Source: Escherichia coli
GTDB taxonomy: Bacteria; Pseudomonadota; Gammaproteobacteria; Enterobacterales; Enterobacteriaceae
DNA: 64,000 bases
Assembly (NCBI RefSeq): GCF_030013595.1
Contig: NZ_CP122770.1
Strand: one strand, 5' to 3'
Under the pieces are notes generated by a model that was given only the letters and a program-made list of their open reading frames with translations, had not been told where the DNA came from and searched no databases. The position numbers and the translations under genes were made by a program. Shown piece by piece: positions 2,287 to 14,884 of this stretch. Positions within the stretch are counted from its first letter, which is position 1, and each line of letters starts with the position of its first letter.

Positions 2287-2931
2287 TTACTGTTTGTTAT
2301 TTTCAATCAGATGATTGATTTCTTCGATCAGGGCAATAACTTCCTTACCTCCTGCCGAATAGCGCCCATGAACAGACTCAGTGATTCCCATCCCAGTCTC
2401 AATGACATCCTCAAATTCTGCACGAGCAGAAATGCGGCTCTTCATCAGCTTCAGATGTTTGAACGATGGCAGGATTGCATCAAGCTTAGGGAATTTCTTC
2501 TTGTTAGGATTAACTTTACAGAGATACAGGTGAGCAGTTATATCGGTCCCCATGATAGAGCTGATTTCGTCCAGTACTCCATCAAAATGCATCAAACCAA
2601 TACGTTCAGTCAGGGAGTCTTTTGAAGGGACAATAACGCAGTCTGCAAAGGCAATCGCAGTACGGGTAAGATCTGAGTCAAATCCCCCACAGTCAATAAG
2701 TAACGTCTTATCGCTGTTCTTGTAGGGAGTCATAATTTCGATTAACTCATCCACTGTTTTGGGTACTTTCACGGAAATTTCTTTTCCTTCAGGTCTCAGC
2801 CCCAGAATGATAGAAAGCCCGGTATGAGTATCCAGATCAACTGTATCAGACTTCATTTCACCAACAATGTTTACGGATGAAGTTGTCTTACCCACACCAC
2901 CTTTGGGATGCGTATTAGCAATAACAGGCAT
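2287..2931 (-). CDS. parA: ParA/ParF-family partition ATPase (small type Ib Walker-type ATPase)
   Basis: Deviant Walker A box KGGVGKTT near the N-terminus (MPVIANTHPKGGVGKTT), about 214 aa, GGAG RBS 9 nt upstream of the ATG at 2931. Confidence 0.85.
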   Translation of the reverse strand: MPVIANTHPKGGVGKTTSSVNIVGEMKSDTVDLDTHTGLSIILGLRPEGKEISVKVPKTVDELIEIMTPYKNSDKTLLIDCGGFDSDLTRTAIAFADCVIVPSKDSLTERIGLMHFDGVLDEISSIMGTDITAHLYLCKVNPNKKKFPKLDAILPSFKHLKLMKSRISARAEFEDVIETGMGITESVHGRYSAGGKEVIALIEEINHLIENNKQ

Positions 2932-2983
2932 AGTGTATCTCCAGAATCCACATGTAATACCCATAAAGCCCCCATAAGACACC

Positions 2984-3100
2984 TTTCGGATATCCAAGAG
3001 GTACTCAATAGATGTTTTTTTACTCTATACCGGTCCTGCATGTCAACAGAATATGAAATACCGATAATATATCCATGAGATATCCGAAAGGGATTTAAAA
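2984..3100. promoter_or_regulatory. GGATAYC-type repeats upstream of the ParA-like operon (candidate type Ib centromere/operator)
   Basis: CGGATATCCAAG (2990), ATATATCCATGAGATATCCGAAAG (3068-3090); related copies at 2232-2275 (AAGATATCC, GGATACTATATGGATACC) and 1879 (GGTATCCGATAG). Confidence 0.35.
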
Positions 3101-3110
3101 AAGTCAGAGC

Positions 3111-3890
3111 TTATGGAATTCTTTTGAGCATAGACACCGCATCGGACTCAGGCATCGAAAACTGCACCCGGTGCCGTGCAGCCACATCCAGTGCAAACAC
3201 CTTCGTGTAGACCTCCGTTGAGCTGATGGACTTATGCCCCATCAGACTCTGCAGGACCTTCAGCGGTATACCGGCATACAGCATATGCATCGCATAGGAA
3301 TGGCGGAACGTATGTGGCGTGACCGGGACAGAGAACGTCACACCATCAGCGGCAGCGGCGGCAACCGCCTCCCCAATCCAGGTCCTGACCGTTCTGTCCG
3401 TCACTTCCCAGATCCGCGCTTTCTCTGTCCTGCCTGTTCGTTTATTACGCCGTTCCATGGGGATTTTCAGTGTGGCCACCATCGTCTGCAGCTGGCTGAC
3501 GTACCAGGCGTCGGAGAGCGGAACCAGCCGGTGAGTCTGCTGACCGGCGGGCATTCTTCCTGCCGTCCTGGCGGCTTTTTCGGTCCGCTGCTTCAGAGTG
3601 GCCAGCTGCACAAACGGATACGGAGGCGTGAGCGAAAAATCCCCCCGCGTCAGCGCCAGTGCTTCATTAATGCGCGCACCGGTGTTCCACAGTGTGGCCA
3701 GCAGCATCTTGCGGCGCAGATCCGGGACGTAATGGAGCAGGGCGCTCACTTCAGGGGCCAGCAGGTATTTTGGCAGTTCATCATGAACCATCGACATCTG
3801 GCGGAGTGCCAGCGCTGCCGGATAATCGATGGCAACAGGAAGCTGAGCGGCATCCCGGGCATGGTGGATCGGTGCCGGCAGGTGCTGCAT
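3111..3890 (-). CDS. resD: Tyrosine site-specific recombinase, ResD-like plasmid multimer resolvase (phage integrase family)
   Basis: C-terminal catalytic region HTFRHSYAMHML...LMGHKSISSTEVYT (R..HxxR..Y signature); likely start MQHLPAPIHH at 3890; the close resemblance to F-plasmid ResD is from memory. Confidence 0.75.
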   Translation of the reverse strand: MQHLPAPIHHARDAAQLPVAIDYPAALALRQMSMVHDELPKYLLAPEVSALLHYVPDLRRKMLLATLWNTGARINEALALTRGDFSLTPPYPFVQLATLKQRTEKAARTAGRMPAGQQTHRLVPLSDAWYVSQLQTMVATLKIPMERRNKRTGRTEKARIWEVTDRTVRTWIGEAVAAAAADGVTFSVPVTPHTFRHSYAMHMLYAGIPLKVLQSLMGHKSISSTEVYTKVFALDVAARHRVQFSMPESDAVSMLKRIP

Positions 3891-3891
3891 A

Positions 3892-4305
3892 TCAGTGTTC
3901 ACTCCACGGGGAAACGTCGGGCAGTTTTTCCACAACCCGGTACTTTCCCGGATAACGGAGCTGGTTACCGCCACGCGTCCAGACGGTGACAACAAAACCC
4001 CCGCCCTGGTTGTTTTCGGGGAGCAGGCGATCGCACTGCTCACTCAGCATGTGGATCACGAACGGCGCATCGCTGCCGTCTTCAAATACCAGTTCCAGCG
4101 CATCGCGGCCATCCAGCGTTCCCTTACTGATGATGACGTACTCAGCCCCCCGCATCTCCCTGAGTAAATGTTTTGCCGCATCCGGGACAAGCAGCCTGGC
4201 TGCGCCGGCATTCCAGCTTAGGTAGACATATCCGGCCTGCGCCTGTACAGACTGCCAGTAATCCGTTCCGGCGACAGCCTGACCTTCATTCTCAATAAAA
4301 AACAT
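3892..4305 (-). CDS. Hypothetical protein, translationally coupled upstream partner of the tyrosine recombinase
   Basis: 137-aa ORF starting MFFIENEGQAVAG with AAGGAG RBS; its stop (3892-3894) lies 1 nt before the recombinase ATG; no family recognised. Confidence 0.5.
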   Translation of the reverse strand: MFFIENEGQAVAGTDYWQSVQAQAGYVYLSWNAGAARLLVPDAAKHLLREMRGAEYVIISKGTLDGRDALELVFEDGSDAPFVIHMLSEQCDRLLPENNQGGGFVVTVWTRGGNQLRYPGKYRVVEKLPDVSPWSEH

Positions 4306-4388
4306 GGGTGACTCCTTTTTTCTTTTCCGGGCAGGGACGGTCATGCGATAACGTCATCCGTCATCACTGCCCTTACCGTCACGCCGTC

Positions 4389-4411
4389 TGATAACATCAT
4401 GCCGTTATCAT
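4389..4411. promoter_or_regulatory. Inverted repeat TGATAAC-N8-GTTATCA, candidate recombination (res/rfs-like) site or operator
   Basis: Perfect 7-bp arms with an 8-bp spacer in the intergenic region upstream of the recombinase operon; a further GATAAC copy follows at about 4421. Confidence 0.25.
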
Positions 4412-4746
4412 CATCACCATGATAACAAGCATCCATATAACCACGCCGTTAAATTACCGGAGAGCCGCTTCCGTCAGATCCGACTTTCCTGAATATCACA
4501 ACTTTCCGGAAGTGTATCACGCTGAGGAAATAATCATATCGCTGTTTTCCGCCCCTGCGCGGCGCATCACAGGTCAGGGAGATGACACAACATATAGTGT
4601 CATCAGCAGCTGAATCAGGCACCACATGTTGTGCTGACGGGAGGTGGCGTTGTGTGGGGGGAGTGGGAGATCCGTCTCCGCCGGAAACCGGATCTGCGCG
4701 GCGGGAAACGGGCAAACGATATGATAATTAAGCAACACACATAAAA

Positions 4747-4795
4747 TCATATCAGATATGATTTTCATCGTTAAAAATTAAACAATATCTGATAT
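4747..4795. promoter_or_regulatory. Pair of palindromic ATATCWGATAT operator-like sites upstream of the 4874 operon
   Basis: ATCATATCAGATATGAT (4747-4763) and AATATCTGATATT (4783-4795), with further TCAGATA half-sites up to 4865. Confidence 0.3.
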
Positions 4796-4873
4796 TATCA
4801 GAAATCAGGAGCACACAAATCATGCAGGATATGATTTTTACCTGTCAGAACATTATCAGATGGAGCGTGCAGG

Positions 4874-5131
4874 ATGGATCAGGAAATGACGTTTTCACTC
4901 AGCTATGAACAACTGACCCGGTTTGCGGAAAAACGCATCCGGGAATGCAATCTGGACAGCCAGGGCGCGATTTATCTCTGCGAGTCAGCCAAAGCCGGAG
5001 CCGTGCTGATCTTCTGGCATGAACTGGCCATAAATGGCTATGCCTCAATGAATGCCATAAAGAGACAGGAGCTCATTGACGCCGACTTTCAGCGCCTCAG
5101 AAACCTCATCTGGCCGGAGGATGACAGGTAA
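4874..5131 (+). CDS. Hypothetical 85-aa protein, first gene of a two-gene module
   Basis: ORF with GGAG RBS; its stop overlaps the start of the next gene (TAATGA at 5128-5133), suggesting translational coupling. Confidence 0.45.
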   Translation: MDQEMTFSLSYEQLTRFAEKRIRECNLDSQGAIYLCESAKAGAVLIFWHELAINGYASMNAIKRQELIDADFQRLRNLIWPEDDR

Positions 5132-5721
5132 TGACCCAGAGCCGCCGACCGTCGCCACTGCAGCGGAGAGTGCTGATTGTGCTGGCTGCCCTTGACGAAA
5201 AACGGCCGGGTCCCGTGCTGACGCGGGACCTGGAACGGGTGCTGGAGCGAAGCGGGGAAGCCCCGGTCTACGGGCCAAACCTGCGCGCCTCCTGCCGTCG
5301 TCTGGAGAATGCCGGCTGGCTGCGTACCCTGCGCGCTCCGAACCTGCAGCTGGCAGTGGAGCTGACGGACGCCGGCCGGGCCGTGGCACAGCCTCTGCTG
5401 CTGGCAGAACAGGACCGCCTCCGGGCAGAACAGCGTGCGGCAGAAGTCGTCGTACTGCCGCTGGTCCCGGCAGCAGGTCTGCCCGCAGACGGCACTTCTG
5501 CCACTGATCTGGCGGTGGAGCTGAACGGCATGACGTATCAGGCCTGCCGTGGGGATTTTGTGGTACGTCTCGACGGCAGCACCTGTCTGCAGTTATGGAA
5601 TAAAGAAGGCAGGGTGGTACGCCTGGAGGGCGATCCGCTGGAAGTGGCGCAGTGGCTGCAGGCCTGTCACGATGCCGGAATGGAGGTTCGTGTACAGGTT
5701 AATGAAAGCGTCACCCCGTAA
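5131..5721 (+). CDS. Hypothetical 196-aa protein with an N-terminal winged-helix-like DNA-binding region; markedly GC-rich
   Basis: N-terminal LQRRVLIVLAALDEKRPGPVLTRDLERVLERSG..RRLENAGWLRT resembles MarR/wHTH domains; GC content visibly higher than neighbouring genes. Confidence 0.5.
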   Translation: MTQSRRPSPLQRRVLIVLAALDEKRPGPVLTRDLERVLERSGEAPVYGPNLRASCRRLENAGWLRTLRAPNLQLAVELTDAGRAVAQPLLLAEQDRLRAEQRAAEVVVLPLVPAAGLPADGTSATDLAVELNGMTYQACRGDFVVRLDGSTCLQLWNKEGRVVRLEGDPLEVAQWLQACHDAGMEVRVQVNESVTP

Positions 5722-5738
5722 AAACATACCAGCACGGT

Positions 5739-5954
5739 TTACACGTTATCCCATGGTGGCAGCAGGTTAACTTTCCTGCGCCACCAGTGGAAAGAGGCCA
5801 TGAGCAGTCCGAACAAAAAACCACCCGTGATACTTATAATAATGGCCTCACCTGCCACCATTCCTGACGGCCCCCAGTAGATAAACCACATTGCACATCC
5901 CCAGGAAATGCCCCATAAGCTCCCCATCAACAGCGTGACCTGCCAGAACGGCAT
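5739..5954 (-). pseudogene. 3' portion of a small inner-membrane protein gene split by the IS66-family insertion
   Basis: 71-aa hydrophobic ORF abutting the IS end; after removing the IS and one copy of the target duplication, the minus-strand frame joins in phase with an upstream segment (..MDSKKMWRSNYA, ATG at 8759) to give a roughly 100-aa two-TM protein. Confidence 0.5.
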
Positions 5955-6048: not shown

Positions 6049-7620
6049 TTACTGAGAGGTCAGATCAACTTTCCAGGGCAACAGATCGCGTACCCGGTTT
6101 GCCGGCCAATCCTGGATATGCTCAATGACGTAACGCAGCCATTTTTCTGGTTCCACATTGTTCAGACGGCATGTGCCGATCAGCGAGTACAACACCGCCG
6201 CATGTTCGCCACCGCTGTCGGAACCCGCGAAGAGCCAGTTTTTCCGGCCTACGGCCACTCCCCGTAAGGCGTTCTCTGCGATGTTGTTGTCGATTTCCAC
6301 CCAGCCATTACTGCAGTACACGTTCAGGGCCTCCCACTGTTTCAGCAGGTATGCGAACGCTTTTGCCGTATCCGAGTGACGCGACAGTGTTTTCATCTGT
6401 TCCTGTATCCAGTCATACAGTGACTGCATCAGTGGAGCCGCTCTGGCTTTTCTTGCTGCCAGACGCTGTTCTGCTGAACATCCCCGGACTTCTGCCTCGA
6501 TGACATACAGTTCACCGATACGCTGCAGGGCTTCCGTGGTGATGTCGGTTGGCACTCTTGCATGCACATCGTGGATTTTTCTCCGGGCATGGGCCATACA
6601 CGCGGCTTCCGTTATTCTGCCGGATTCGTATAACGCCCGGTAACCACCGTAAGCATCTGCCTGAAGCACACCGCTGTAACCGGCCAGGTGATTCTGTGGA
6701 TGGATACCTTTCCGGTCCGGGCTGTACGCGAACCAGACCGCCGGGGGCATCTGTGAACCGGCGTTACGGTCATCACGGACATAGACCCACAGCCGGGCAG
6801 TTCTTGTTTTACCACTGCCCGGCTCCTGGACCGGAACGGGGATATCATCCGCATGGACTTTACCGGGCATCAGCACATACTGGCGCAGCACGTCATACAG
6901 CGGCTCCAGCAGTTCAGCAACGGCACCGGTCCAGCGCCCCAGCGTGGCGCGGCTCAGTTCCACGCCCTGACGAAGGTATATTTCTGACTGGCGGTATAAC
7001 GGCAGATGGTCTGCATACTTCCCGGTGACGATATGAGCCAGAAGCCCCGCTCCGGCATAACTGCGTGCAATGGGTTTTGAAGGTACTGGTGCCTGCACGA
7101 TATGGTCGCACCGGCAACAGGCCAGTTTCGGACGTTGTGTTTCGATAACCTTAAAAGCGCTGCTGATAAGCTCCAGTTGCTCTGACACATCACACCCCAG
7201 AGGACTGAGGTCACCACCACAGGCCGGGCAGCATTCCTCTTCCGGCCGGATGACCCGGGTTTCACGGGGAAGTGAGGCCGGTAACGGCTTACGGGCTGAA
7301 GACTGGCGCAGGGCGGATGGCAGTACCGGGTCATATTGCTCATCCAGCGTTTCCGCCATTTCTTCCTGAAGTGCGCTGATTCGCTCCTGGGCTTCCTGTA
7401 TCTGCCGTTCGGTTTTAGCGCGAAGTTTTTCTGAGCTTTTACCGAACTGCATGCGCTGCAGTTTCGCAACCAGCGCCTTCAGCCGGTTGATTTCGGAAGC
7501 ATAAGCCGCCACCCGCTGTGAGAGCAGGCGGTTGTATTTCGCCATCTGGCGGATGGTGTCCTGTTGCGTCTGCAACAGTGCCCGCAGGCGGGCATTCTCA
7601 TGAGCAAGTGAGGTGTCCAT
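6049..7620 (-). CDS. tnpC: IS66-family transposase TnpC
   Basis: 523-aa protein with the zinc-finger-like CCPACGG..CCRCDH segment and conserved central and C-terminal regions typical of IS66 TnpC. Confidence 0.9.
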
Positions 7621-7639
7621 ATCCTCACTTTACAACGGG

Positions 7640-7987
7640 TTATATGCGGATGCCAGCGCGTTCCGTTCGTTTCGGGTGCTTCCAGTCGATGCCTTCGAGA
7701 AGCATGGACAACTGAGCCGGAGTAAGGTGAACCTTTCCATCGCGGGTGACCGGCCAGACGAAGCGGCCCCGCTCCAGGCGTTTGGTGAAGAGGCACAGTC
7801 CGTCACTGTCAGCCCACAGCACTTTTATCTGGTCACCCCGGCGTCCGCGGAAGATGAACAGATGCCCGGAGAACGGGTCATCCTTCAGGACGTTCTGAAC
7901 TTTTGAGGCCAGGCCGTTAAAGCCATTTCGCATATCGGTGATACCGGCAACCAGCCAGATACGCGAACCGGCAGGGAGAGATATCAT
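7640..7987 (-). CDS. tnpB: IS66-family accessory protein TnpB
   Basis: 115-aa ORF (MISLPAGSRIWLVAGITDMRNGFNGLA...) in the conserved middle position of IS66 elements. Confidence 0.85.
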   Translation of the reverse strand: MISLPAGSRIWLVAGITDMRNGFNGLASKVQNVLKDDPFSGHLFIFRGRRGDQIKVLWADSDGLCLFTKRLERGRFVWPVTRDGKVHLTPAQLSMLLEGIDWKHPKRTERAGIRI

Positions 7988-8637
7988 CAGTGGCTGCTCC
8001 CTTTCATTTCGCGGATAAGTGTCTGTAATAACGCCGGTGTCAGTTCACCTTTCAGCCTGAGAGTTCCGGCCGGCAGAACCAGCTCGCAGCACAGACTGTC
8101 TGGCAGTGTATTTATCTGTTCAGGTATCTGCACTGGTGCCGGGATTTTATTATCCGGCTCCGGAGTTAACGTCACGGGAAGTAGCGATGTTTCATGTTCG
8201 CCGGGCGGTTGCAGGCCACCGTTACGCCAGAGATGCCGCCAGTTAAAGAGCAGGTTATCGTTAATTCCATTCTCTCGAGCTATTTGTGCGACACAAGCAC
8301 CGGGTAAAAGAGTTTGCTGAACCAGTCTCCATTTAAACTCCGGTGAAAATCGGTTCCGGCGGGGTTTCTCTGCTTTCACAGGCTGAGTCACGGTCGGGGC
8401 TGAAGGGTATCGCCCCGGGAAAAGAGCCCGGGCCAGTTGCCCGCAGGAATATTCACCGGAAAGAGGCCAGTCAGTGAATACCTGGTGAAATCGCCTCACC
8501 AGAGAAAAAATGGCGGTTTTGCTGACACCGGTCTGCGCAGAAATGCGCGGGTACGACAGTGACTCGTCAAATCTCAGCTGTAGCACACGCAGGATCAATT
8601 CCGGATTGTCTGCCAGTACCGCTTTTCGTGCATTCAT
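7987..8637 (-). CDS. tnpA: IS66-family accessory protein TnpA (orf1)
   Basis: 216-aa ORF first in the IS66 operon; its stop overlaps the tnpB start; HTH-like N-terminus. Confidence 0.7.
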   Translation of the reverse strand: MNARKAVLADNPELILRVLQLRFDESLSYPRISAQTGVSKTAIFSLVRRFHQVFTDWPLSGEYSCGQLARALFPGRYPSAPTVTQPVKAEKPRRNRFSPEFKWRLVQQTLLPGACVAQIARENGINDNLLFNWRHLWRNGGLQPPGEHETSLLPVTLTPEPDNKIPAPVQIPEQINTLPDSLCCELVLPAGTLRLKGELTPALLQTLIREMKGSSH

Positions 8638-8926: not shown

Positions 8927-9262
8927 ATGAACAGAAAATATTATTTTAATAATATGTGGTGGGGATGGGTGACGGGGGGATATATGCTGTATATGTCATG
9001 GGATTATGATTTTAAATACAGATTACTGTTCTGGTGTATTTCTCTCTGCGGAATGGTTTTGTATCCGGTTGCAAAATGGTATATTGAAGATACAGCTCTG
9101 AAATTTACCCGGCCTGATTTCTGGAACAGCGGTTTTTTTGCTGATACACCTGGGAAAATGGGATTGCTTGCTGTTTATACGGGTACTGTTTTCATATTAT
9201 CTCTTCCGTTAAGTATGATATATATTCTTTCTGTTATTATAAAAAGGCTGTCTGTAAGATAG
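8927..9262 (+). CDS. iia: Colicin Ia-type immunity protein (inner-membrane protein)
   Basis: 111-aa hydrophobic protein (MNRKYYFNNMWWGWVTGGYMLYMSWDY...) convergent with and immediately 3' of the colicin gene; the 111-aa length fits Ia rather than Ib immunity (from memory). Confidence 0.85.
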   Translation: MNRKYYFNNMWWGWVTGGYMLYMSWDYDFKYRLLFWCISLCGMVLYPVAKWYIEDTALKFTRPDFWNSGFFADTPGKMGLLAVYTGTVFILSLPLSMIYILSVIIKRLSVR

Positions 9263-9283: not shown

Positions 9284-11164
9284 TTAAATACCCCAGAACT
9301 TATTCGCTTTTTCCACAAGCGATTCATCAATCAGCGCACCGGTGACAGCCATCAGTAAACCATACCCGATAATGCCTAAAGCGCTTCCGGTAAGAATACT
9401 GAAGACCAGTGCAACAAGAGCCGTTGCGGCATTGCCTGCTATAATGGCTTCTGTTTTAACAAAAAGAGGACGCCAGTTCTCTGTCCGGACAGCCTTACCA
9501 AACTCAGTGATCCAGTCAGCAAGACTTGTAAATTTTCCTGCATATCCCAGTCCCCGACTGAATCTGTTCAGATTAGACGATATATCAGACAGCTTCACAG
9601 ACTCAAGGGCTGCGGCAATCGCTGCACGATCTTTTGCATTAATTTTTTTGTTAATGTCAGCCCGGTACTTTTCATACGTTTTTAATGCCTCTTCAACATT
9701 ACGTATTTTCTTCCCTTTAGCCTGCCCGGCCATCTCTCTGGCTAACTGCTCAGCTTTTGCACCATATTTTTCTGAAACTGATTTCAGGAACTCTGTTGTG
9801 AAATTAATTGCGTCTTTCGTTGCCTTCAGTTCATCCTGTTTTCTTTTCTCTTCCGCTATCTTCTGATTGATGCCGGCAAGCTGGTTACGGATATTCTCTT
9901 TTTCCTTCAACAGGGCATTAAGAGCGTCATTTGCATGCTTTTGCTCATTTGTTCTGGCACTGAGGTTATTTCTCGCCGAATTTACCGCAGATTCAGCAGA
10001 GGTGATTTTATTTCTGGCATCAAGCAATCGTTGCCGTAACTTATCCCATTCAGCAACTTCAGCATTATAAATTTTCTTGTCACCTTCCACATCCTCTGTC
10101 ACCACCGGATTCCGGTCATTCAGAATATTGCGTTTATAATCCAGACCGGAATGGGTCAGAAGATAATTCAGGTTTGCACGGTTATCGATGACTGCGCTGG
10201 TTGTGATTTTTATCGTACCGGCAAATCTCGGATCACCGCTCACAACAATAGAATGATTTGTTGATGAACGCCCCGGGAATTTTTCAGGGGAAACTATCGT
10301 TTTGCCGTCAGGCGTGTTTTTCTGTTGCGTCAGCTGTTGTTCAGCTCTGGTTAATGCATTACGGGCCGTGTTAAGCGATTCCGTCACTGAACTGAGTTTA
10401 TTCCGGGCCTCTGAAATGGCCCTGTCATTCCGTGTCTGCTGCCCGAGCAGACGGGCCTGTTGTGCATCAAGAACGGCAAGGGCTGCCCCGCCATTTTTTT
10501 CCAGCTCTGACAACCGCGTGTCCAGAATACCTTTTCTGCGCTCGTATTCAGCAAGCATATCAGCGGCCTTCTTGTCTGCGTTCTGCGCATCCTTCTGCCG
10601 TTTTTCAGCCTGTTCGATTAACGACCTGGCCTCCCGGGGAGATATACGAAGAGAATCAGCATCAGCAAACAGCATCCGGCTCTCTGTATGCAGCCGGAGG
10701 GCATCATATCCGGCGATTTCAGTACGGAATCCGTATTCTCTCAGCTCTGCCTGCAGGAGTCTGAACTCCTGTCGTGTAATATCAGCGGCATCTGCGTTTC
10801 CGGCACGGAGTGTTTTCAGTGTGTTTTCATCTTTTTCCCTTGCAGCAATCGCCGCAGAGAGGCGTTTTCCGGCTTCAGTACGCTTATTCTCATTCTCTTT
10901 CTGCTGCGCGCTGAGCGTGTTTTTGTACGCTGTGATTTCCTTGTCCCTTTTTTCGATATCACTTCGGGTTGGGGAATCATCAACCCACTCGTTTCCGCCC
11001 CAGATGGTTTTGTTCCCGAAGGAACTCCATGCAGGCGGGGTACCATGAAAGACATCGACACGTGGAGGGTTTACATAAATATCAACGGCCATAATTTCAT
11101 GGCCATCTGAATCATACCCCAGCGATTCTGCACCGGGATTTGTAATACGTACAGGGTCAGACAT
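9284..11164 (-). CDS. cia: Colicin Ia (or Ib) pore-forming bacteriocin, 626 aa
   Basis: Full-length match by recollection to colicin Ia/Ib: N-terminus MSDPVRITNPGAESLGYDSDGHEIMAVDIYVNPPRVDVFHG, long coiled-coil central region, C-terminal channel domain with hydrophobic hairpin ..AGNAATALVALVFSILTGSALGIIGYGLLMAVTGALIDESLVEKANKFWGI. Confidence 0.95.
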   Translation of the reverse strand: MSDPVRITNPGAESLGYDSDGHEIMAVDIYVNPPRVDVFHGTPPAWSSFGNKTIWGGNEWVDDSPTRSDIEKRDKEITAYKNTLSAQQKENENKRTEAGKRLSAAIAAREKDENTLKTLRAGNADAADITRQEFRLLQAELREYGFRTEIAGYDALRLHTESRMLFADADSLRISPREARSLIEQAEKRQKDAQNADKKAADMLAEYERRKGILDTRLSELEKNGGAALAVLDAQQARLLGQQTRNDRAISEARNKLSSVTESLNTARNALTRAEQQLTQQKNTPDGKTIVSPEKFPGRSSTNHSIVVSGDPRFAGTIKITTSAVIDNRANLNYLLTHSGLDYKRNILNDRNPVVTEDVEGDKKIYNAEVAEWDKLRQRLLDARNKITSAESAVNSARNNLSARTNEQKHANDALNALLKEKENIRNQLAGINQKIAEEKRKQDELKATKDAINFTTEFLKSVSEKYGAKAEQLAREMAGQAKGKKIRNVEEALKTYEKYRADINKKINAKDRAAIAAALESVKLSDISSNLNRFSRGLGYAGKFTSLADWITEFGKAVRTENWRPLFVKTEAIIAGNAATALVALVFSILTGSALGIIGYGLLMAVTGALIDESLVEKANKFWGI

Positions 11165-11205
11165 TCGGTATCTCCTTCATCCTCTGAGGAAAACAAATGA
11201 ATTAA

Positions 11206-11270
11206 CTGCTTACGCATATGGATACATATACAGTATTAATTTATTAAGGAGAAAATGGCATGTCAAGATT
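11206..11270 (-). promoter_or_regulatory. Colicin promoter with overlapping LexA (SOS) operator
   Basis: Minus strand reads TTGACA (-35, 11261-11266) ...TAATAAATTAATA... then TACTGTATATGTATCCATATGCGTAAGCAG (11206-11236), containing the CTGT-N8 LexA half-sites typical of colicin operators, followed by GAAGGAG RBS and the ATG. Confidence 0.6.
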
Positions 11271-11442
11271 TGATGATAGTGATTATCATTAACATGAAGT
11301 GATGTTACACCGTTCAGAAAGCCTGCTGACGCTGTGGCAGCATCACAGTCTGGGTATTCTCTGGTGCAATACAAAAACCGGACTTTCCCGTAACAACAGA
11401 CAATGTTACGGGAAAAGTTACAGAACTGAGCCACAAAATATC

Positions 11443-12789
11443 TCAGTACCTGAGATGCATAAAAACACCGTACATATGTTTCTTAAAAGGGGGATGATCG
11501 TTATCCAGCCATTTCGGTGGATCGGTATGCAGAACACCAATCTGCTTCATGCCGGTATGCTGCCTGGATTTTCTCGCGCAGTAATCACTGTCTTCATATC
11601 CCATCGTTTCGATGACCACTCTGGCCGTCTTTCCGTCAGGAGCCCTTGCTGTGACAATGAAATCCGGCAGTACATATTTCTTTTCACCATTAACATAAAC
11701 TTCTGTATCAAACAGGGGCCTTTCCAGACTTAATTCCGGCGTACCTGGCTTTCTTTTAAGCCAGCTGGCCACATTCAGAAGAGCAGTGAGCGTGTTTCGT
11801 TCCAGTTTGCTGTCCACAGGCACCGGACATGTCAGTTGATAAAGAGCATGAGCATACCCTTCACTGCAGATGATTCTGCCATCGGCACTCCGGCAAAAAG
11901 CAAGAATAACCCAGTAAGGGGGACGTATTCCGCCCTGCGCTTCACCATTAATACTGATCCCCCGCACAGGTCTGATGACCTGAATATTACCGTTCGCCCA
12001 GTGAATTTCCACAGCATCACGACAGATGTGCTGCGCCATAAAAATCTGAAAGAACATATGCTTTCTTCTGGCAGGCCAGTGTCGTTCTGAATTCTCCAGC
12101 GTTTCCATTAACCGCTCCTGAGACCTTTCAGACATTCCTGGCCGGAAATGGATAATTTCAGATAAGGCTCTTCCCCGAATATACTCCTGCTGTAGTGTAA
12201 CCTGCCGTATGGCATCAAGACACTCACGATAATTAGTCCGGATACGGGGATTAGCCAGGGAATCCAGTTTATTCAGCCCTGCATCTTCAATAAGCGACAG
12301 GAGTAAACGGCCAAGGCGCGGACGTTTCTTGCGAACGGAGGAGCGCTCACCATTATGGTAAGCAGAGCGGGCCTGCAGTCTGATAACAGAATTACTGTCA
12401 TCAGGTGGTAAAAAGTTTCTGTAATTTATACGGGTGCTAACGGGATGCCGGCTTGCTCCGAAGGATGTTTCCTCTTCATTTCCGGATAACTGACGATACA
12501 TGGGGCATTCAGGTGCATGCTCATGATTAAAACTGGACAGATAAAGAGTACCCGTATTGTTTTTAAGAGCAGCAAAATTCATGGCCGGCGAATCTCCCGG
12601 AATACAGTCACACTGTAACCATGCATCATACTCACGCATTTCCCGGAGAAGAGCATTGGCCAGGTTATGTTGTGCCATGGTTGCTGGCCTTTTCAGTCCA
12701 CAGACCGTCTTTACTGCAGTCTCTTCCTCACTGCTAAGCTCCCGAATCACTTTGCCCCGGGGATTCTTCTTTACAAGTATCATTGGCAT
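11443..12789 (-). CDS. Hypothetical 448-aa protein with a Cys/His cluster and a possible nuclease-like C-terminal region
   Basis: Long ORF with GGAG RBS before ATG at 12789 (MPMILVKK..); motifs CDCIPGD and HEHAPECP; C-terminal YVLPDFIVTARAPDGKTARVVIETMGYE loosely resembles a restriction-endonuclease-like core; no family assigned. Confidence 0.6.
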   Translation of the reverse strand: MPMILVKKNPRGKVIRELSSEEETAVKTVCGLKRPATMAQHNLANALLREMREYDAWLQCDCIPGDSPAMNFAALKNNTGTLYLSSFNHEHAPECPMYRQLSGNEEETSFGASRHPVSTRINYRNFLPPDDSNSVIRLQARSAYHNGERSSVRKKRPRLGRLLLSLIEDAGLNKLDSLANPRIRTNYRECLDAIRQVTLQQEYIRGRALSEIIHFRPGMSERSQERLMETLENSERHWPARRKHMFFQIFMAQHICRDAVEIHWANGNIQVIRPVRGISINGEAQGGIRPPYWVILAFCRSADGRIICSEGYAHALYQLTCPVPVDSKLERNTLTALLNVASWLKRKPGTPELSLERPLFDTEVYVNGEKKYVLPDFIVTARAPDGKTARVVIETMGYEDSDYCARKSRQHTGMKQIGVLHTDPPKWLDNDHPPFKKHMYGVFMHLRY

Positions 12790-13142
12790 AATGAAAGCAC
12801 TCCTTATGTACATGCTTAAACAGTAAGTAAAATATACAAAGAACCCCCCATGAAACAAAGGCAGAGATGAACTGTGCGCCCCGATATCTTCTTCTGATAT
12901 CCTTTCAAATGAATTGTTTTTATTTATATCATGACAACATTAAAGTGAGAGAATATATCAACCATGTTTCTGTCAGGGTTCAGTAGAATATCAATTCGAC
13001 TGTCACGCCATAACTGTAACTACCTCGAGTATAAATATTCAGAGAATGGACTTATTAGCCATGAAAAATCACCTGATGGGAAATTTACTAATTTATGGAT
13101 TGTGATATTATTAAAGAGTAAAACCAGCCAGCCGAGGTATTT

Positions 13143-13736
13143 ATGGGAAAAAATCAGGAAGAAAGGAAAACTCCCGTCATTGTGGTGAAAAAACGTCGTA
13201 CTTTTTCGCCACCGTCCTTATCCGAAAAAACAGATATTATCGCACCTGTATTTACTGAACAGACGGCAGAATCAGCCCCCGCCGGAATAAATTCATCTGC
13301 CGTCGAAACACATATCCCCGAAGCGCCAGCCAGGAAGAAGAAAAAGAAAAGACACCGTTTTCCACGTCCCTCCCACTGGACCCGTGAGTATACTCACGAG
13401 TGCGTGGAAAAAATAAAGGCCCTGTTTCCTCATCTTCGTGCTGAAGGTGGTGGATTTATTCCCCTGAAAATTGGCATAAGCAATGATATTTCGGCATTTC
13501 TGGCAGAAAGCCCGGATACAGAACTGTCCATGGACGAATGGTTCTGTGCAGTGTCCTGCATCACCTCCCGCCGCGTATATCTGCAGCGGACCTCTGTCGC
13601 CGGCGTCCCTCGTTATGGGCTGGATGGTCATCCCGATGGGCAGGTCTCAGAAACTGAAGCACAGAGTGCTGTTCAAAGACTGGCGATAATAGAACAACGG
13701 TGGCTCAGGATGAAGGAACGGCAGACTGAGCAATAA
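13143..13736 (+). CDS. FinO/ProQ-domain RNA-binding protein (FopA-like)
   Basis: Basic N-terminal half (KKKKKRHRFPRP) followed by a FinO-like domain pattern (..EKIKALFP..GGFIPLKIGISNDI..RRVYLQRTSVAGVPRYGLDGHPDGQVSE..); a hairpin GAGTCTGcttaCAGACTC follows the stop. Confidence 0.65.
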   Translation: MGKNQEERKTPVIVVKKRRTFSPPSLSEKTDIIAPVFTEQTAESAPAGINSSAVETHIPEAPARKKKKKRHRFPRPSHWTREYTHECVEKIKALFPHLRAEGGGFIPLKIGISNDISAFLAESPDTELSMDEWFCAVSCITSRRVYLQRTSVAGVPRYGLDGHPDGQVSETEAQSAVQRLAIIEQRWLRMKERQTEQ

Positions 13737-14017: not shown

Positions 14018-14884
14018 TTAACGCATAATTACCCGTGATTCTTTCCTGGTAACGTAAGTACAGTTATCCGGAACCTCCTCCATAATAAAAGACATGGCTC
14101 CAATTTTTACATTACTGCCTATTTTTACGTTAAGCCCGATAATACACGTATGGGCACCGATATCGACATTATCACCAATAACGATATAATTCTCTCTGCT
14201 GTCAGATTCCTTTTCGCCAATGGTCGTATTCTGCCGTATAATCACATTCTCACCGATTTTTACATTTCCGTGAATGACGACGCCTGAATGGTGGGGCAGC
14301 ACGAGGCCTTTACCAATCTGCGCCCCCAGACCAATATCACATCCATACTTTGCCATAAGCGCATTTTTTATCTTGATCGCACATTTTCGTTGTTTTTTAT
14401 TCCCCGATATATACATTTCATTAGCCAGGCGCCACCACAGAAGAAAACCTCTCTGCCTCTGCATACCGTTCCTGATAAGCCGGTGAAAAACAAACTTATC
14501 CCGCATGATAACTTCTGCTTTCCAGTATTCCAGAAGATGACGTTTTTTTCCTGAAAATAAAAACGTGCCAATATGGAAATAAGAAATCGGATTTTTTATC
14601 AACATACGCAAATTTTTAGAAAACAATGAATACAGATGTATTTTATATACACAGATAAAACCGCGCAACAGACATAAATATGACAGTAGCAATGAAAAAG
14701 CAGAGAGTGTGGGTGATACAGAAAAGTAACTGTCAGACATTAAATCTGATGCATCGATAAACAGACGCCCCAGCAGATGCACCTGTAATGCAACGATTTT
14801 GCCGTGTCTGCTACAGAAGTAATACACAAATTTCCGGGGATTCTGCCTTAGCATTTTGATATATTCAGATACGGTAAATCTCAC
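14018..14884 (-). CDS. CysE/WcaB-like hexapeptide-repeat O-acetyltransferase (serine acetyltransferase family)
   Basis: C-terminal left-handed beta-helix repeats GCDIGLGAQIGKGLVLPHHSGVVIHGNVKIGENVIIRQNTTIG...VIGDNVDIGAHTCIIGLNVKIGSNVKIG align with the CysE catalytic domain; the gene is strongly AT-rich; N-terminal start uncertain. Confidence 0.6.
   Translation of the reverse strand: MRFTVSEYIKMLRQNPRKFVYYFCSRHGKIVALQVHLLGRLFIDASDLMSDSYFSVSPTLSAFSLLLSYLCLLRGFICVYKIHLYSLFSKNLRMLIKNPISYFHIGTFLFSGKKRHLLEYWKAEVIMRDKFVFHRLIRNGMQRQRGFLLWWRLANEMYISGNKKQRKCAIKIKNALMAKYGCDIGLGAQIGKGLVLPHHSGVVIHGNVKIGENVIIRQNTTIGEKESDSRENYIVIGDNVDIGAHTCIIGLNVKIGSNVKIGAMSFIMEEVPDNCTYVTRKESRVIMR

Follow-up and report, generated by a model that had tools for sequence, protein, structure and literature searches.

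The gene yagA occupies positions 11443–12789, on the minus strand, of a 64,000-nucleotide stretch of Escherichia coli DNA (contig NZ_CP122770.1 of assembly GCF_030013595.1; the whole stretch is hereafter called the window). It comprises 448 codons and a TGA stop, and its product is a genuine cytoplasmic protein of the large PF27227 family, structurally akin to DUF1173. We consider it highly probable that YagA is a real member of this family and combines a zinc motif with a nuclease fold, and rather probable that it is a catalytically active nuclease. The reading that we favour, tentatively, is that of a structure-selective endonuclease acting on the DNA intermediates of the element that carries it. 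The original prediction, made from the letters of the window, had described a 448-aa open reading frame (ORF) of uncharacterised function between the colicin and FinO-domain genes, with a Cys/His cluster and a nuclease-like C-terminus. The ORF, on the minus strand, and its neighbours were confirmed as described, and the quoted motifs are present in the protein: CDCIPGD at residues 60–66, HEHAPECP at residues 89–96, and YVLPDFIVTARAPDGKTARVVIETMGYE at residues 372–399.

C-terminal nuclease-like domain

The C-terminal part of YagA (residues 325–448, positions 11446–11817, minus strand) was recognised as a PD-(D/E)XK nuclease domain of the Bax1/DUF790 type. In an AlphaFold2 model built from a 25-sequence alignment (mean predicted local distance difference test score, pLDDT, of 81; low only at residues 102–111 and 133–152), the secondary structure elements of residues 328–423 follow the canonical alpha-beta-beta-beta-alpha-beta order of the PD-(D/E)XK superfamily. 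Three motifs were delineated: motif I, PVD-S327-x2-E330-R; motif II, P375-D376-F377; and motif III, E394-T-M-G397 followed by Y403 and K407. Conservation was counted over 76 relatives with 20–59% identity to YagA. The three acidic residues are near-invariant (E330 in 76/76, D376 in 75/76, and E394 in 74/76), as are S327 (76/76), G397 (75/76), Y403 (74/76), and K407 (75/76). The persistence of the acidic triad, Y403, and K407 at such divergence points to a functional metal-binding active site in YagA. Position 357 is Lys in 74 of the 76 relatives and Arg in the YagA of the window.

Direct searches with the YagA sequence gave weak results. DUF790 was the only Pfam match (independent E-value 0.4, residues 369–415) in a set of models that apparently lacks PF27227, the NCBIfam scan returned a weak match to a restriction-enzyme C-terminus only, and nothing of use came from the PDB sequence search. 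When a profile of 40 distant relatives was run against the PDB, only Bax1 chains were matched (E 0.05–0.3). In this alignment, P375-D376-F377 and E394 of YagA fall on D305 and E318 of Archaeoglobus fulgidus Bax1; E330 would be the equivalent of Bax1 E275, judged from its position only. The DUF790 hidden Markov model (HMM; PF05626) matched 21 of the 40 distant relatives at E ≤ 0.1 and five of them at E ≤ 1e-3. One relative matched the NCBIfam model "endonuclease Bax1" (E 0.0023), far under the curated cut-off. The metal site of Bax1 is made up of E275, D305, and E318, and mutation of the equivalent Asp abolishes cleavage by XPB-Bax1 (PMC7293015). Bax1 is without the canonical lysine (EIAG in its motif) and yet cuts DNA at bubble and junction structures (PMC7293015). 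The profile matches, the order of the predicted fold, and the near-invariant E330, D376, and E394 thus bear out the nuclease-like C-terminus. Remote-homology and structure work gave no assignment to a non-nuclease housekeeping family, the outcome that the original prediction had named beforehand as refuting. Taking these data together with those on the N-terminal and central parts described below, we infer that YagA binds zinc, binds DNA, and cuts it.

N-terminal and central regions

The N-terminal part of the protein carries a putative zinc-binding module, W57-x2-C60-x-C62 ... H91-x3-C95 (residues 57–96, positions 12502–12621, minus strand). All 76 relatives have C60, C62, and H91; 73 of them have C95, and 70 have W57. 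The suggestion that the two Cys/His motifs bind metal therefore stands for C60, C62, H91, and C95, the conserved ligand set, and fails for H89, the first His of "HEHAPEC", which is not conserved. By its conservation pattern, the Cys2-His-Cys module most likely binds zinc.

Residues 102–152 (12334–12486, minus strand) probably form a disordered linker. Both models of YagA had pLDDT values below 50 at residues 102–111 and 133–152, and the linker ends in a conserved basic patch, the R/K-rich "RKKRPRL", seen in the alignment of full-length homologues (alignment A1). The linker is followed by a region spanning residues 156–324 (11818–12324, minus strand), which consists of a helical part (158–233) and a beta-rich domain (245–324), the fold of which is possibly OB-like; the central domain has weak similarity to OB-fold binders of single-stranded DNA. 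The helical and beta-rich region is probably the DNA-binding part of YagA. No SRA, EVE, or similar fold reading modified bases was detected in residues 1–328, nor were Bax1-like XPB-binding or Cas2-like domains.

Family membership and relatives

Pfam PF27227 ("Endonuc-like_C", precomputed) is assigned to P0001, a representative 99% identical to YagA, and to nearly all full-length homologues. Full-length homologues with 33–59% identity were found in Kosakonia, Enterobacter, Citrobacter, Pantoea, Erwinia, Rahnella, Providencia, Pectobacterium, Cronobacter, Serratia, and Yersinia, and 57 columns of alignment A1 are invariant. YagA homologues formed 115 clusters, and when 1.84 billion representative proteins were searched with a profile, 778 clusters (50% identity) were collected at E ≤ 1e-3, most of which are 420–470 aa long and align end to end. 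A genome scan with the close-family alignment returned 13 loci, all of them from Enterobacterales.

Comparison of the whole YagA model with the AFDB by Foldseek yielded many "DUF1173 domain-containing" proteins (E 1e-24 to 1e-28, approximately 450 columns, TM-scores of 0.5–0.58), and some YagA homologues are labelled DUF1173 in UniRef. The DUF1173 HMM (PF06666) missed YagA itself and matched only one of 40 relatives, weakly (E 0.019); the YagA clade has its own Pfam family, PF27227. Despite this lack of an HMM match, the full-length Foldseek matches and the zinc motif place YagA as a divergent branch of a DUF1173-like superfamily.

No homologue of YagA was found by tblastn in 50,697 phage genomes, and a phage origin of yagA was rejected on this ground. 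None of the defence-protein models of PADLOC-DB v2 and no PHROGs family was matched by YagA or by ten diverse relatives.

Distribution and disruption of yagA

In identical plasmids, the product is named "protein YagA" by the NCBI Prokaryotic Genome Annotation Pipeline. Hundreds of IncI1/I-gamma conjugative plasmids from E. coli, Salmonella, and Shigella contain the 2.2-kb yagA region at 99–100% identity, and it is identical or near-identical in more than 1,500 plasmid records. By tblastn, copies of yagA were found in 1,441 PLSDB plasmids, almost all of IncI type, 1,282 of which are typed as conjugative. The gene was full-length in 1,158 of these carriers and truncated or split in the others (approximately 20%). 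Disruption in natural IncI plasmids is recurrent, with break points near residues 94, 174, 219, and 295. Large clusters of truncated YagA proteins exist (including P0003, P0007, P0008, and P0035), and UniProt holds a "YagA/OmpC fusion" entry. Insertion of a resistance cassette into yagA has been described (PMC8004404). Since approximately 20% of IncI carriers hold a disrupted copy and resistance cassettes insert into the gene, yagA is widespread, usually intact, yet dispensable. The ratio of nonsynonymous to synonymous substitution rates between two IncI1 alleles was 0.53, a value that is uninformative with 17 differences only.

A fragment of YagA has been catalogued for decades as UniProt P04481, "uncharacterized protein in cib 5' region". 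The gene yagA of the E. coli K-12 chromosome (CP4-6 prophage) is a different, unrelated gene with the same name. The paper on pCol1B9 in which fopA was named describes the function of the yagA product as unknown (PMC7491321). The gene goes unmentioned in transposon-sequencing papers on IncI and I-complex plasmids; in one such study, maintenance of pMS7163B, for which the presence of yagA was not checked, required only the replicon and parAB.

A 100% identical yagA was also present at positions 4595–5938 of an 8.2-kb contig (L019) binned into a metagenome-assembled genome of "Collinsella sp." (Actinomycetota). This contig is almost certainly a mis-binned fragment of an IncI1 plasmid and not a case of real carriage.

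Genomic context of the homologues

We collected 25 loci of the YagA family and clustered the ORFs of 23 of them. The family is confined to plasmids and integrative/conjugative elements, usually in their core. In at least 15 different backbones, the yagA homologue lies within the core of replication, partition, and resolution (rep/par/res) genes. A Rep3-type initiator gene is directly beside it in L002, L007, L014, and L035, and parA in L004, L014, and L034. The commonest neighbour, found within a few kb in 10 of the 23 loci, encodes a ResD-like tyrosine recombinase of about 260 aa, which is adjacent and co-directional in L025, overlapping in L028, and convergent within 50 bp in L004. Genes of UmuDC, ParM/StbB, and KfrA are often nearby.

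In a Serratia plasmid, parAB, the yagA homologue, a methyltransferase gene, an antirestriction gene, a ParB-like gene, and psiB/psiA follow each other on one strand, which is a leading-region arrangement. More distant relatives were found in conjugative elements among genes of the type IV secretion system coupling protein, relaxase, Dam, DsbA, SSB, and DUF3577, and also near antirestriction and psiB genes; thermonuclease-family genes lie near a relative from Rhizobium. Cargo genes encoding RES, HEPN-Toprim, and AAA_13 proteins are near several plasmid copies. Defence-island settings are rare among the homologues, and the plasmid core is the usual location.

Possible role of YagA

According to the role that we tentatively propose, YagA would be a divalent-metal-dependent DNA endonuclease recognising DNA structure (junctions of single- and double-stranded DNA, flaps, forks, and four-way junctions) and not a signature of sequence plus methylation. 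Its targets would be intermediates of the plasmid's own DNA, formed in replication, when the neighbouring tyrosine recombinase resolves multimers, or in establishment after conjugation. Under some conditions the plasmid would benefit from YagA, but neither its replication nor its maintenance would depend on it. We favour this role because the closest catalytic relatives (Bax1, VRR-NUC, and Hjc) recognise DNA structure, the central domain is maybe OB-like, and the gene is located among replication, partition, and resolution genes or among establishment genes.

Several points weigh against this proposal. No neighbour is universal across the YagA loci, and since plasmid core genes cluster anyway, adjacency to rep/par/res genes may mean only that yagA belongs to the backbone. 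With a truncated or split copy in approximately 20% of carriers, any maintenance role is dispensable, and the literature on YagA holds no experiments, only mentions of the gene as a landmark or as one of "unknown function". The canonical (D/E)xK lysine is missing, position 396 being Met in 68 of the 76 relatives; K407 in the following helix may stand in for it, as in Bax1, where Ala occupies this place. DUF1173 was described as having no active-site signature (PMC3045609), so that a non-catalytic role is possible. Finally, one homologue lies in an island with genes of an integrase, AlpA, DUF3987, AAA_5, and a DNA methylase, and the distant homologue P0129 (28% identity, locus L018) lies between ZacA/ZacB and PDC-S06 (PADLOC, E 4e-191; hits at 2735–5871 and 9596–12253), a defence-island setting unlike most other loci.

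These last two settings would suit a single-protein weapon against phages or competing plasmids, in which recognition of the invader would fall to the N-terminal and central domains, through modified DNA, for instance, or through single-stranded or branched intermediates of replication or transfer, and cutting to the C-terminal domain. Such a function would also agree with the stand-alone nature of the nuclease and its place on a mobile element, next to another module of competition (the genes of colicin Ia and its immunity protein), with the RES, HEPN-Toprim, and AAA_13 cargo mentioned above, and with the dispensability and frequent loss of yagA, which are typical of accessory defence genes. 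We nevertheless regard it as somewhat unlikely, although it comes close behind the role proposed above. The searches of PADLOC and PHROGs (YagA and ten relatives) gave no match, no methyltransferase gene adjoins yagA at the IncI1 locus, and no reader fold was found in residues 1–328. Many unrelated backbones have the gene at a stable position in the rep/par/res core rather than in variable hotspots of cargo. For ColIb-type plasmids, phage-type conversion has been ascribed to ibfA and not to yagA, though this ascription does not amount to a direct test (PMC8004404). The role in phage defence or plasmid competition put forward in the original prediction is thus left unsupported, though not refuted.

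The absence of a PD-(D/E)XK signature reported for DUF1173 and the replacement of the motif lysine by Met would both be expected of an inactive nuclease fold that binds plasmid DNA or a partner and regulates or organises replication, partition, or recombination without cutting. The Pfam name, only "Endonuc-like", and the proximity of replication regulators, fopA in IncI1 and again a ProQ/FinO gene on an IncFII plasmid, are in line with this. We consider it improbable, since the near-invariance of the acidic triad, Y403, and K407 at 20% overall identity is hard to explain without catalysis or metal binding, and Bax1 has the same motif without Lys and is active. Even less is to be said for a selfish nuclease, either of the homing type or forming with the small tyrosine recombinase a two-gene mobile module, that spreads itself between plasmids. 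The close recombinase genes of L025, L028, and L004 and the occurrence of the family on IncI, IncFII, and Rep3 plasmids and in chromosomal islands could be read in this way; in most loci, however, the recombinase gene is 1–5 kb away or absent, and these recombinases seem to be ordinary plasmid multimer-resolution genes in their size and position, which makes such a module highly improbable.

A wider reading, which we find unlikely, is that the whole superfamily of YagA/PF27227 and DUF1173 (at least 778 clusters at 50% identity) consists of unrecognised single-protein, zinc-dependent, structure-sensing nucleases of plasmids and integrative/conjugative elements, serving conflict between elements or establishment after transfer. 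Such proteins might cut replication or transfer intermediates of rival plasmids and phages, or trim the incoming transferred strand. If this were true, most IncI1 resistance plasmids would carry, in YagA, a functional module new to plasmid biology. IncI1/I-gamma plasmids, most of which carry YagA, are major carriers of extended-spectrum beta-lactamase and AmpC genes in E. coli and Salmonella. As a predicted active nuclease with a consistent place beside replication, partition, and multimer-resolution genes, YagA is a concrete candidate for a step in plasmid maintenance, establishment, or inter-plasmid competition, with defined residues in both its putative zinc site (C60, C62, H91, and C95) and its predicted nuclease site (E330, D376, E394, and K407).

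The ORF of yagA, its name, the Pfam "endonuclease-like" domain, and the fold prediction for the sister family were already known, and YagA does not represent a new kind of system. New here are the link between the architectures of YagA and DUF1173, the active site of Bax1/DUF790 type with its defined residues, the confinement of the family to plasmids and integrative/conjugative elements, usually in a core position, and the absence of evidence in favour of any known defence system. No member of the YagA superfamily, with its several hundred clusters, has been studied so far.

The yagA gene and its neighbours

The uninterrupted ORF begins with an ATG at 12789 and ends with the TGA at 11445–11443. 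An alternative in-frame TTG is located upstream at 12858 and would give a product of 471 aa. The N-termini of homologues align at the equivalent of YagA M1/M3 ("M(A/P)MKL"; "MAMKLV..."), which indicates that the 448-aa protein is the right form. A possible ribosome-binding site, AAGGAG (12800–12805, minus strand), lies 10 nt 5' of the ATG; with this rather long spacer, the assignment is tentative. A terminator-like hairpin with a T-run (11383–11416, minus strand), consisting of a 13-pair stem followed by TCCGGTTTTT, was found 27 nt past the stop codon, upstream of the colicin Ia promoter. This arrangement suggests that yagA is its own transcription unit, outside the colicin operon. Evidence for control of yagA by the SOS response in common with the colicin gene was not found: upstream of yagA there is no LexA-box-like site, and the gene has its own terminator.

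Downstream of yagA is the colicin Ia gene (9284–11164, minus strand), with the colicin Ia immunity gene (8927–9262, plus strand) beside it. On the other side, the ProQ/FinO-domain gene fopA (13143–13736, plus strand) is divergent from yagA. The gene order in IncI1 is rep, yacAB, acetyltransferase, fopA, yagA, cia/imm, (IS66 in the window), ydeA, resD, parA, and parM, where the part beyond ydeA (resD, parA, and parM) was taken from the related plasmid L001 and not from the annotation of the window. The adjacency of fopA and yagA is not unique to IncI1, since in the IncFII plasmid L033 of Salmonella Gaminara a ProQ/FinO gene (6130–6666) is directly upstream of a 58% identical YagA homologue (7001–8365); the pair is co-directional there and divergent in IncI1.

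An IS66-family element (6049–8637, minus strand), comprising a transposase gene (6049–7620) and a gene of the TnpA accessory protein (7987–8637), separates ydeA from the colicin Ia immunity gene. In L001, a plasmid that is identical apart from this position, a DUF6404 gene is found in its place. Between fopA and the toxin–antitoxin pair yacAB, a low-GC (0.35–0.41) gene resembling serine/sugar O-acetyltransferases of the hexapeptide-repeat family was found (14018–14884, minus strand). Its product scores below the NCBIfam cut-offs for CysE and EpsC, and the gene has the appearance of foreign DNA inserted near the replicon.

The product of the gene at 5131–5721 (plus strand), called YdeA by some sources, is a winged-helix-like protein of 196 aa with no Pfam family and only weak similarity to PaaX/AbiEi_4. 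YdeA-like genes were located within 8 kb of YagA homologues in five of the 23 loci (for example, L027 769–1392, L005 6753–7049, L023 6751–7047, and L026 3324–3665), and in Yersinia ruckeri such a gene abuts yagA. YdeA was rejected as an obligate partner of YagA, its family being far larger (1,156 clusters) and without annotation. In Pantoea and Rahnella plasmids, a conserved protein of 283–291 aa is encoded directly upstream of the YagA homologue and in the same direction (L005 7078–7953, L023 7076–7951, and L026 3696–4547). It is preceded by genes of a small winged helix-turn-helix protein and of a 106-aa membrane-like protein, and the four genes may form a cassette. None of the three proteins encoded upstream of the homologue was matched in PADLOC.

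Comparison with known systems

A close counterpart of YagA in architecture is the proteobacterial family DUF1173 (PF06666), which likewise has about 400–450 aa, an N-terminal CxC...Hx3-5C, and a C-terminal PD-(D/E)XK-related domain. A putative zinc motif, CxC-Xn-H-X3-5-C, and a PD-(D/E)XK-related C-terminus were predicted in 2011 for these proteins of about 400 aa (PMC3045609). Whereas DUF1173 was described without an active-site signature, E, D, E, and K are retained in the YagA-type family with hardly any variation.

Bax1/DUF790 is the sole relative of YagA at the sequence level with a solved structure. The two share the motif PDF ... (V/I)E-x-x-G-x5-Y-x3-K, and both are without the ExK lysine (EIAG in Bax1 vs. 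ETMG in YagA). Bax1 is an archaeal repair nuclease associated with XPB, whereas YagA is bacterial and plasmid-borne, and no gene of an XPB-type helicase was found next to yagA among its neighbours in the window and in the identical plasmid. Nucleases of the VRR-NUC and Hjc types are small single-domain proteins keeping the canonical ExK lysine; YagA adds about 325 N-terminal residues. With type II and type IV enzymes (NgoMIV, BsaWI, EcoRI, AbaSI, and PvuRts1I), the resemblance is at the level of the fold only, and unlike them, YagA has no cognate methyltransferase at its locus, no reader domain, and no assignment to a REBASE-type family. ParB of RP4 differs from YagA in its staphylococcal-nuclease-type fold and has no sequence relationship to it, but the setting is alike: as part of the multimer-resolution operon parCBA, it is encoded by a nuclease gene lying among the partition and multimer-resolution genes of a conjugative plasmid.

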